IMG/VR virus record: IMGVR_UViG_3300014202_001519
Length of the DNA stretch: 20,537 nucleotides
Source: a virus
Strand: one strand, 5' to 3'
Positions 12,355 to 16,405 of the stretch are shown piece by piece (the first letter of the stretch is position 1; each line of letters begins with the position of its first letter). A program made the position numbers and the translations under genes. The notes under the pieces were generated by a model. It was not told the origin of the DNA. It searched no databases and saw nothing but the letters and a program-made list of their open reading frames with translations.

Positions 12355-12761
12355 AGGTTATCCATTACTTTTCTAGCGAACAAAAGGTATCTTAAAGGAA
12401 CCAACCCATTGCGGTCCCTAACTTTCCTGCCTTTTCTGAGAGGATTAAACCCATCCCCGCCAAACTGACAGGATGTAAAGTCTACCTCTTCGCCGTTAGG
12501 CAATCTATTCCAGTAATGCGGTTCGCCTTTAATGCGGCCTGTTACGATAACACCGCCATATAGCGCTTGAATTACTGTTGCAGCGGCGGCACAATGAAGA
12601 TAGAGAGGTGACTTTACTCTTTTTCTTCTATATTGTTCAGGCCAGCAAGCAGTGTCTGGACCCGCAGATTTGAGCAGAGCTTTTCGGATTCTAACGCGCT
12701 CTTTTTCCAAGAGCCGTCTGCCATCCACTTGTGACACCACTTTTGATCGCTGTTTGAGCAT
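12351..12761 (-). CDS. YunG-like protein
   Basis: HCAAAATVIQALYGGVIV...HYWNRLPNGEEVDFTSCQF; start uncertain. Confidence 0.65.
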   Translation of the reverse strand: MLKQRSKVVSQVDGRRLLEKERVRIRKALLKSAGPDTACWPEQYRRKRVKSPLYLHCAAAATVIQALYGGVIVTGRIKGEPHYWNRLPNGEEVDFTSCQFGGDGFNPLRKGRKVRDRNGLVPLRYLLFARKVMDNL

Positions 12762-12910
12762 TTAGGACACACCCAGCCATCATTGGTTGCTACCAAGGTT
12801 TGATGGTCGCAATGAGTAAATGGATGAAAATGCTCGCACGCCTGATAAGCATTCAGGCTTTGAACTTCCTCATCCGTCCACGGTGCTAAGTTCAAATTAT
12901 AGTCTAGCAT
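12614..12910 (-). CDS. Hypothetical zinc-binding protein
   Basis: Start MLDYNL 2 nt after tRNA-Glu; APWT.EEV.SLN.YQ....HPFT..C...LVAT.DGWVCPKC. Confidence 0.7.
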   Translation of the reverse strand: MLDYNLNLAPWTDEEVQSLNAYQACEHFHPFTHCDHQTLVATNDGWVCPKCSNSDQKWCHKWMADGSWKKSALESEKLCSNLRVQTLLAGLNNIEEKE

Positions 12911-12912
12911 AG

Positions 12913-12984
12913 TACCCCGTATGGGAATCGAACCCACCTATACTGGTTGAGAGCCAGTCTACATCACCTGACGTATCACGGGGC
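12913..12984 (-). tRNA. tRNA-Glu(CTC)
   Basis: GCCCCGT/ACGGGGT (G1:U72), ACTGG-CT CTC AA-CCAGT, TTCGATT. Confidence 0.9.
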
Positions 12985-12990
12985 ATGTAA

Positions 12991-13257
12991 GGGGGTAAGA
13001 ATGAGCCGCGAACGGTTGTCATCCCTGGCGGTTCATAATCCTTTATAGGATATGATTACCACCTAAACCCCCACCTTTCGTTTATGGACGGAAAGGCTCG
13101 GTCCACCTCTTTTTATGACTTAGGTTGGTCGTCCTGATTTAAGGACAACAGGCTATGTCCCTCACTGACGCAGCCAGCGCGCTCCACAACGTTTAAGTCC
13201 CTATGGAGTAAGACTATGCAACGTTTAGGGCCGATTGCACAGGGCCACCCGAAGGTA
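12991..13257 (-). ncRNA. Structured ncRNA: UUCG hairpin, five tandem H-type pseudoknots, then a three-way junction
   Basis: No ORF >=60 aa; repeated stem1/stem2 crossing pairings each joined by a TAAA linker; G-U pairs favour the minus strand (see findings). Confidence 0.7.
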
Positions 13258-13656
13258 TCAATGGTTGTCCTGTAAGTAGAGCCAATTTGCTGTTAGCCAT
13301 ACTCCGATACTGGACAACTTGCCATAAGCTATATAAAGATTCGTTTTATCGCCGTAAGCGTCCCAAACAGCAGAATGCTTGCCGTCTTCAAACCTGTATT
13401 CACCACCCAAATCCGCAACCACTTCCTTGAACTTGGCGACTTTCTCTTCTGGTTTAACTGAATAGACTGCCAACGTATCTCTCATAGTGATACACTTGGC
13501 ACAATCCTTCTCGCTAAATGCGTCGTTACGGAATACCTGTTGTGGAATCTTTCGGCCACAAAGGGTCTTCTTACCATCTATTGTATGATGATTATTCGAC
13601 CACTTGCCAGGGCCGCGAGTAGTCAGGGATTGCCACGCAATACGACGCACCATCAT
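13258..13656 (-). CDS. Hypothetical protein (zinc-binding N-terminus)
   Basis: HH...TLCG...CAKC. Confidence 0.75.
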   Translation of the reverse strand: MMVRRIAWQSLTTRGPGKWSNNHHTIDGKKTLCGRKIPQQVFRNDAFSEKDCAKCITMRDTLAVYSVKPEEKVAKFKEVVADLGGEYRFEDGKHSAVWDAYGDKTNLYIAYGKLSSIGVWLTANWLYLQDNH

Positions 13657-16309: not shown

Positions 16310-16405
16310 GCGGGTGTTTTTTAGATGCTTGCCCGCAAAAGCATCAGTCCCCTGTAAGCCGAGGTCGGCCATGACGCTTCACCTACTATACTACGAATAG
16401 TAGGT
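16310..16405 (-). ncRNA. Structured leader: 9-bp hairpin, small hairpin, H-type pseudoknot
   Basis: ACCTACTAT/ATAGTAGGT; GCCG/CGGC; GATGCTT-TT-GCGGG-C-AAGCATC-TAAAAAACA-CCCGC. Confidence 0.55.

Follow-up and report, generated by a model that had tools for sequence, protein, structure and literature searches.

The locus described here raises the question of what fills the gap between the stop codon of a 132-amino-acid (132-aa) open reading frame (ORF) and the gene for a transfer RNA (tRNA), tRNA-Glu(CUC), on a 20,537-nucleotide stretch of viral DNA (IMG/VR record IMGVR_UViG_3300014202_001519; the whole stretch is called the window). The source of the window is a contig of a double-stranded DNA (dsDNA) phage, with tRNA genes and T4-like content. 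An initial annotation, which was made from the sequence alone, had proposed that the gap encodes a non-coding RNA with five tandem H-type pseudoknots and a three-way junction. Upon re-reading of the sequence all elements that it had listed were found on the minus strand where it had placed them. The structured RNA comprises positions 12985-13256 of the window, minus strand, and its order is a cap hairpin, pseudoknots 1 and 2 (PK1, PK2), an irregular middle element, PK3, PK4, PK5, the three-way junction, and a tail. Judged by the comparison of homologous sequences, it constitutes a new RNA family with an architecture of a known kind, a covariation-supported fold and no match in Rfam.

For the single sequence, the nested minimum free energy was -100.3 kcal/mol (z = -3.6 versus 200 dinucleotide shuffles). 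A generic H-type pattern, with 4-6 base pairs (bp) in stem 1 (S1) and at least 5 bp in stem 2 (S2), was found four times without overlap, compared with 1.58 +/- 1.04 times in dinucleotide shuffles. The earlier claim about the pseudoknot pairings, that they would surpass those of shuffled sequence, was borne out in part: more knots were present than in the shuffle mean, but 12 of 300 shuffles also reached the observed four. Across the 20.5-kb window, knots with (U/A)AAA in loop 3 clustered at the RNA, and one more good example was present at 16345-16310. Taken alone, the single-sequence case was moderate, and the pattern was suggestive but not compelling.

Seven further distinct versions of the RNA were recovered from metagenome contigs of related huge phages (L001, L002, L005, L006, L007, L009 and L010), using contig look-ups of relatives of the 132-aa ORF and one metagenome pattern scan; the RNA of an additional contig, L011, was identical to that of L001. 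The position of the RNA is fixed. In all eight versions it starts 1-5 nucleotides (nt) past the stop codon of the 132-aa ORF or of an inserted ORF of 63-70 aa, which is present upstream of the RNA in L001, L006, L007 and L010 and absent from the window. Likewise, in all eight it ends 3-6 nt before tRNA-Glu(CUC) or a tRNA-derived stub, and a homologous downstream tRNA is present in L001, L002, L005 and L007. A covariance model of PK5 and the junction (R1) matched all eight loci with 87-132 bits and revealed no paralogue in the 63 kb searched. No match to the RNA region was found among the INPHARED phages with blastn, and no relatives were detected in IMG/VR with protein, protein-profile and two DNA-pattern searches, or in GTDB genome contigs by pattern and profile. 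A separate sequence look-up likewise gave no look-alike of the family beyond its own window. The RNA domain is thus known from a clade of huge T4-like phages.

The comparative evidence was decisive: the fold is real because compensatory changes occur in crossing stems across the eight homologues. Pairs were counted in the eight distinct sequences after segmentation by hand, element by element. In this hand alignment 520 of 544 pair cells were canonical (95.6%), and 37 of the 75 pairs were changed on both sides. As the hand alignment had been fitted to the model, the count was repeated with a plain MAFFT alignment (A4), which had not been fitted to the structure. In A4, 88.2% of the cells paired, compared with 36-48% when the partners were slid by 1-3 columns, and 30 pairs changed on both sides, compared with 4-12 for slid partners; the observed values were reached by 0 of 500 column shuffles. 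For PK5 and the junction, with the distant L002 included, 94.8% of the cells paired (40-53% when slid), and 14 pairs were changed on both sides (1-5 when slid).

The claim that five H-type pseudoknots follow one another in tandem, each with a loop 3 rich in A, was thereby supported by covariation, which was strong in the crossing stems of PK1, PK2 and PK4 (all coordinates of the RNA elements refer to the minus strand). PK1 (13216-13246) consists of S1 GGCC/GGCC, S2 GUGCAAU/GUUGCAU and loop 3 CUAAAC. Its S2 was canonical in 45/45 cells with five of seven pairs compensatory, and the variants included GUGCAAU/GUUGCAU, GUAUGA/UCAUAU, ACAUGAU/AUCAUGU and GUGGGA/UCCCAU; its S1 was canonical in 28/28 cells with one compensatory pair. 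PK2 (13182-13215; S1 AGUCUU/GGGACU, S2 CUCCAUA/UGUGGAG, loop 3 UAAACGU) had a fully canonical S2 as well (45/45), in which all seven pairs were compensatory, with GCCGUGA/UUACGGC in L001 and CCAUGA/UCAUGG in L006 and L007 as examples. In PK4 (13105-13131; S1 GAC/GUC, S2 ACCU/AGGU, loop 3 (A)UAAAAAG), 27 of 28 S2 cells were canonical and three of four pairs were compensatory (ACUU/AAGU, ACCC/GGGU, GCCA/UGGU, CCUA/UAGG). PK3 (13132-13161; S1 GGGACA/UGUCCU, S2 (G)CCUG/CAGG, loop 3 UAAAU) had three compensatory pairs in S1, and at least one such pair was present in the S1 of each of PK1, PK2, PK3 and PK4. In PK5 (13073-13104; S1 GGAC/GUCC, S2 GCCUUUC/GAAAGGU, loop 2 a single invariant C, loop 3 AUAAAC), the outer four pairs of S2 and the closing C-G pair were kept, the inner two pairs were frequently mismatched, and L002 has CCCUG/UAGGG.

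The three-way junction (12991-13072), with its closing stem GGGGGU/ACCCCC and two hairpins, had been predicted to end 6 nt before tRNA-Glu, and this was verified: the junction stems covaried, 142 of 144 cells were canonical and 13 of 18 pairs were compensatory, including all seven pairs of stem H2. Each junction hairpin contains a conserved 3x1 internal loop (YAA / C). The single-stranded tail UUACAU (12985-12990) makes up the 6 nt from the junction to tRNA position +1. At the other end, the cap hairpin ACC-UUCG-GGU (13247-13256) was paired in 21/21 cells of the hand alignment. Its tetraloop is UUCG, GAAA or GCAA among the homologues, and therefore the cap looks like a stability clamp more than a docking site. 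One proposed element had to be given up. The middle element (13162-13181) is conserved in sequence (GCG...CUNCG...AGUG) and has no consensus helix (RNAalifold, -1.5 kcal/mol); the 7-bp hairpin CGCUGGC/GUCAGUG that had been assigned to it forms in the window only and is not conserved.

The initial annotation had also stated that the units repeat in structure and not in sequence. This held true for S2, which is unrelated between units. In contrast, a GAC/GUC core of S1 is common to PK3-5, with a strand-swapped version in PK2, and loop 3 was (U)AAA(C/A) in 36 of 36 unit copies. The units are 24-36 nt long and are joined by linkers of 0 nt in seven of the eight homologues and of 4 nt once (L002). 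Identity across the homologues was 82% for stem 1, 71% for stem 2 and 89% for the unpaired junction letters. In L010, PK4 is absent and an additional knot is located between PK1 and PK2, and in L002 the 5' half differs (it is knot-like by eye), with PK4, PK5 and the junction recognisable. Because knots are gained and lost between relatives, and S1 and loop 3 are conserved while S2 drifts, the knots are regarded as independent repeated units and not as parts of one catalytic fold. The data favour an RNA that is modular and mechanically robust, with both ends structurally closed and with repeated units that would be under selection for the sequence of stem 1 and loop 3. The strand follows from the type of non-Watson-Crick cells: G-U cells outnumbered A-C cells by 59 to 12, therefore the tRNA-sense strand is the RNA, and an element acting at the DNA level was rejected on the same numbers.

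It was verified that the region is non-coding, as had been claimed. No ORF is common to the eight homologues; open stretches extend to 33-59 codons at most, in frames that differ, and every loop 3 contains UAA. Stop-codon readthrough stimulated by the knots was rejected, since the frame closes after 10 codons. The novelty of the RNA had been made dependent on a comparison with Rfam, and no family matched it (window region at E<=10, five homologue loci at E<=1). With Rfam 15 at gathering thresholds, only tRNA models matched in the window. At E<=10 three snoRNA matches were added (12-14 bits), located outside the RNA on the downstream side of the tRNA, and at the five homologue loci two sub-threshold matches were added at E<=1, which lie on the tRNA or the stub. 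None of the Rfam 15 covariance models matched the RNA, including riboswitch pseudoknots and GP20-b. A search of full-text literature for tandem pseudoknots with phage tRNAs or in huge phages yielded no description of such an element. A hammerhead or a 5S rRNA was dismissed for the junction, as its strands are only 1-4 nt long and no Rfam model matched. A sponge of the CsrA or Hfq type was dismissed as well, because the GGA motifs are near chance by eye (uncounted) and are placed in stems.

How might such an RNA be produced? Sequence scans did not reveal a sigma-70-like promoter, a T4 late promoter or an intrinsic terminator flanking the RNA, and the simplest reading is therefore that the RNA is transcribed together with the ORF and the tRNA. 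RNase P recognises the acceptor stem and the T arm of tRNAs. In two homologues the tRNA is reduced, and the knot array upstream of it is intact. At L010:862-905 (minus strand) the tRNA-Glu position is reduced to the acceptor stem and the T arm, and at L009:1380-1430 (plus strand) the acceptor, a D-like hairpin and the T arm are retained, without an anticodon arm. These stubs look like retained processing signals and not like decoders. The constant 3-6-nt spacer and the stubs, which keep the RNase P determinants, support that RNase P sets the 3' end of the RNA. It is plausible that the end is formed in this way, and also that the RNA is released by RNase P at tRNA-Glu, as the initial annotation had assumed.

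In the mechanism that is proposed here, a polycistronic minus-strand transcript would contain the upstream ORF, the RNA, the tRNA and the downstream ORF. The stable tetraloop hairpin 1-5 nt past the stop codon would shield the 5' side. About five abutting H-type knots would follow, and their (U)AAA(C) loop 3 could sit in the minor groove of the G/C-rich stem 1. An RNase P cut at the tRNA or tRNA-like element would leave the junction with a tail too short for a 3' exonuclease to grip, and the knot array would remain as a module that resists nucleases. Being independent repeated units, the knots could then serve as multivalent protein-binding sites or as serial mechanical blocks that stabilise the upstream message. 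Two readings are most likely, and they may coexist: the array may be a processed, stable RNA with about five similar sites for a protein, or a 3'-end module that guards the upstream message once the tRNA has been excised. The whole account, that is, a conserved non-coding RNA of about 270-300 nt that is processed by RNase P, resists nucleases and acts as a modular binding or protective array, is given an even chance of being correct; within it, the processing, the stability and the role in binding or protection are what we infer.

Several points weigh against this account. Most other ORF-tRNA junctions in the window are devoid of such a structure, with stop codons abutting the tRNAs, and it is therefore not apparent that protection by a 3' structure is generally required. 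To block an exonuclease, a simple hairpin rich in G and C would be enough, and the elaborate conserved design argues for something more specific. A partner protein was not identified, and the 132-aa ORF, which is always upstream, has no recognisable fold. Two distant relatives of this ORF, L003 and L004, are accompanied neither by the RNA nor by the tRNA. Eight sequences are too few for a formal test of the R-scape type. The covariation of the S2 pairings that had been called for was present in PK1, PK2 and PK4 and lacking in PK3, whose S2 core (CCU/AGG) is invariant; PK5-S1 (GGAC/GUCC) is invariant as well and shows no covariation. Both stems are compatible with the model, and they would be unproven parts of it.

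The foremost alternative, although it appears unlikely, is a purely cis-acting transcript-end element, which, once the tRNA has been excised, would serve only to stabilise the upstream mRNA against 3'-to-5' exonucleases or to insulate tRNA folding and RNase P access from the translated ORF. The fixed position 1-5 nt from the stop codon and 3-6 nt from the tRNA, the GC-rich closing stem with its short 3' tail, and the lack of a terminator that would otherwise protect the message are all consistent with it, and so is the finding that another tRNA is preceded, at a distance of 4 nt, by one knot of like design, which is conserved in L002. However, the RNA keeps with the tRNA and not with a particular ORF, as is evident from the ORF of 63-70 aa that is inserted in L001, L006, L007 and L010. 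In addition, such an element is missing at most of the other ORF-tRNA junctions, and a roadblock would need far less than 270-300 nt in which unpaired letters are conserved.

The layout of the RNA has a counterpart in the 3' untranslated region of tobamoviruses. In tobacco mosaic virus (TMV), a plus-strand RNA virus of plants, the upstream pseudoknot domain (UPD) contains three knots and is contiguous with an uncleaved tRNA-like end that can be aminoacylated. As in the phage RNA, head-to-tail H-type knots are located directly between a stop codon and a tRNA-shaped element, and both structures are non-coding and at the 3' side of a message. In contrast to TMV, the element described here belongs to a dsDNA phage, has about five knots and a three-way junction, is followed by a genuine tRNA gene, and is expected to be excised by RNase P. 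There is no sequence similarity, and the resemblance is in layout only.

Next comes the possibility that the array is the RNA core of an undescribed phage ribonucleoprotein or decoy, in which each knot, with its conserved stem 1 and UAAAC loop, captures one copy of an RNA-binding protein of the host or the phage. One processed RNA would then sequester about five molecules, e.g., of a defence nuclease, ribosomal protein S1 or an exonuclease, and the tRNA or tRNA-like element would serve only as the cut signal for RNase P. It is doubtful that this narrower proposal is correct.

Improbable is an anti-defence decoy, in which the array would imitate ToxI, CptI or TenpI and thereby sequester one or more ToxN-family endoribonucleases of the host, as the pseudo-ToxI of phage phiTE reportedly does. 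The unit design invites the comparison. Type III antitoxins also consist of tandem H-type knots, and in TenpI the repeats differ from one another, stem 1 is conserved, and a loop rich in A is positioned for A-minor contacts (PMC12283969; PMC13682666), as in the phage RNA. Type III antitoxin repeats range from identical to about 35% divergent and are 31-62 nt long (PMC3401426, PMC12283969); the units of the phage RNA, with 24-36 nt, overlap the ToxI range (PMC3401426) and share only the stem-1 core and loop 3. In ToxI, CptI and TenpI, however, the 5' and 3' tails of the units, which are single-stranded, occupy the groove of the toxin, bind it and contain the site of cleavage (PMC13682666), and with 0-nt linkers such tails between the units are absent here. 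Furthermore, type III operons have the order promoter, repeats, terminator and toxin gene, and the phage RNA has neither a dedicated promoter nor a terminator. It matches no Rfam family, its cap hairpin, middle element and three-way junction are without an antitoxin counterpart, and stem 2 differs between its units and drifts freely. No toxin-like ORF is located nearby, although a decoy without a toxin would lack one too. The Klebsiella pneumoniae plasmid NZ_CP056218.1, a tenpIN carrier according to PMC12283969, showed no similar array in a spot check; its toxin was unconfirmed by Pfam and PADLOC, and its knots were undelimited. As a separate observation, the sequence GUCCAUAAAC, the only string shared with the phage RNA, is found on this plasmid at L015:3880-3905, upstream of a 187-aa gene that a paper names TenpN. 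It equals stem-1b plus loop 3 of PK5, and with 10 nt the match could be chance.

Readings as a riboswitch array or as a tmRNA rank below the decoy and are less likely. An array of preQ1-I-like pseudoknot aptamers that senses or buffers a small molecule is very improbable. The RNA does share the general plan of preQ1-I, in which stem 1 is short, the loop takes part in forming stem 2, and the 3' strand, rich in A, occupies the stem-1 groove. Also, the one-nucleotide loop 2 of PK5 is an invariant C, and six of seven PK1 copies have a C in loop 2. Nevertheless, neither a preQ1 model nor another riboswitch model matched, even at E<=10, stem 2 with its 4-7 bp is long for such pockets, and at a position 3' of an ORF and 5' of a tRNA there is no obvious expression platform. 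Hardly credible is the pseudoknot ring of a split or degenerate transfer-messenger RNA (tmRNA), since, although tmRNAs contain three consecutive pseudoknots (PK2-PK4, adjacent H-type knots that are individually replaceable, like those here) and are encoded by huge phages, ARAGORN detected no tmRNA in the window or the homologue loci and Rfam none up to E<=10, a tag reading frame is absent, the two ends form neither an acceptor stem by pairing nor a tRNA-like domain, and the order of knots, junction and then a separate complete tRNA is unlike that of a standard or a permuted tmRNA.

A further comparison is offered by the setting. The RNAs rnaC and rnaD of phage T4 (species 1 and 2) are also non-coding RNAs in a T4-type tRNA cluster and are matured together with the tRNAs (AF158101 annotation). 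In contrast to the RNA described here, they are 119 and 139 nt long, are located downstream of tRNA-Arg and have no pseudoknots with UAAA loops. It was noticed that T4 rnaC (L014:1409-1547, minus strand) ends in a perfect T-arm-like hairpin, CCGGG-UUCGAAU-CCCGG, which is closed by a terminal stem, so that it has a tRNA-like 3' domain. The nearest analogues of the phage RNA are the TMV UPD in layout, the type III antitoxins in unit design and T4 rnaC/rnaD in setting, and it is a member of none of them.

The non-tRNA content of the tRNA islands of giant phages is almost unexplored, and it gains a well-supported new RNA family. The stubs in L009 and L010 suggest that these phages employ tRNA-shaped elements as signals for the processing of other RNAs. 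If the knots indeed were protein traps or exonuclease blocks, they would represent a new way for phages to stabilise RNA or to counter defence, and also a compact natural scaffold of mechanically stable knots.

The window is a minus-strand tRNA island, in which 13-14 tRNAs are interspersed with small ORFs. Its phage-like genes include an FkbM-type methyltransferase, a glycosyltransferase, DUF5672, YunG and an M24 peptidase. The upstream 132-aa ORF (13258-13656, minus strand), whose own contig measures 623 kb, belongs to a conserved family, and its TGA stop codon (13258-13260) is located 1 nt 5' of the cap hairpin of the RNA. The protein collection contained 13 relatives with 60-100% identity, and no match was obtained with Pfam, PHROG or PADLOC. 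An AlphaFold2 model (predicted local distance difference test score 69.5), which was confident in the C-terminal half only, did not match a PDB fold. The 132-aa protein was considered as a possible toxin or partner, and it has neither a family match nor a PDB fold match. In the 13 members of the family, Cys, Trp and His positions are invariant, e.g., in TLCG...C.KC. None of the eight ORFs neighbouring the RNA matched in PADLOC.

On the 3' side, tRNA-Glu(CUC) (12912-12984, minus strand; Rfam 41.3 bits, also found by ARAGORN) is the presumed RNase P site. It is followed by a 98-aa zinc-ribbon ORF (12614-12910, minus strand), whose AUG is located 2 nt past the tRNA discriminator. Therefore, 3' processing of the tRNA would make the message of this downstream ORF almost leaderless (A-CU-AUG from the discriminator to the start codon; window 12908-12913, minus strand), and the same arrangement was found in L001, L009 and L010. 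The separate single pseudoknot of the same design (16310-16345, minus strand; GAUGCU...AGCAUC UAAAAAACA CCCGC) is located 4 nt before an aberrant tRNA-Arg(UCU). A near-identical copy is present at L002:806-841 (plus strand), and no tRNA is called after this copy. Finally, the ORF of 63-70 aa that is inserted between the 132-aa ORF and the RNA contains a CxxC-containing motif at its end (L001:2892-3098, L006:2610-2801 and L007:1489-1680, plus strand).

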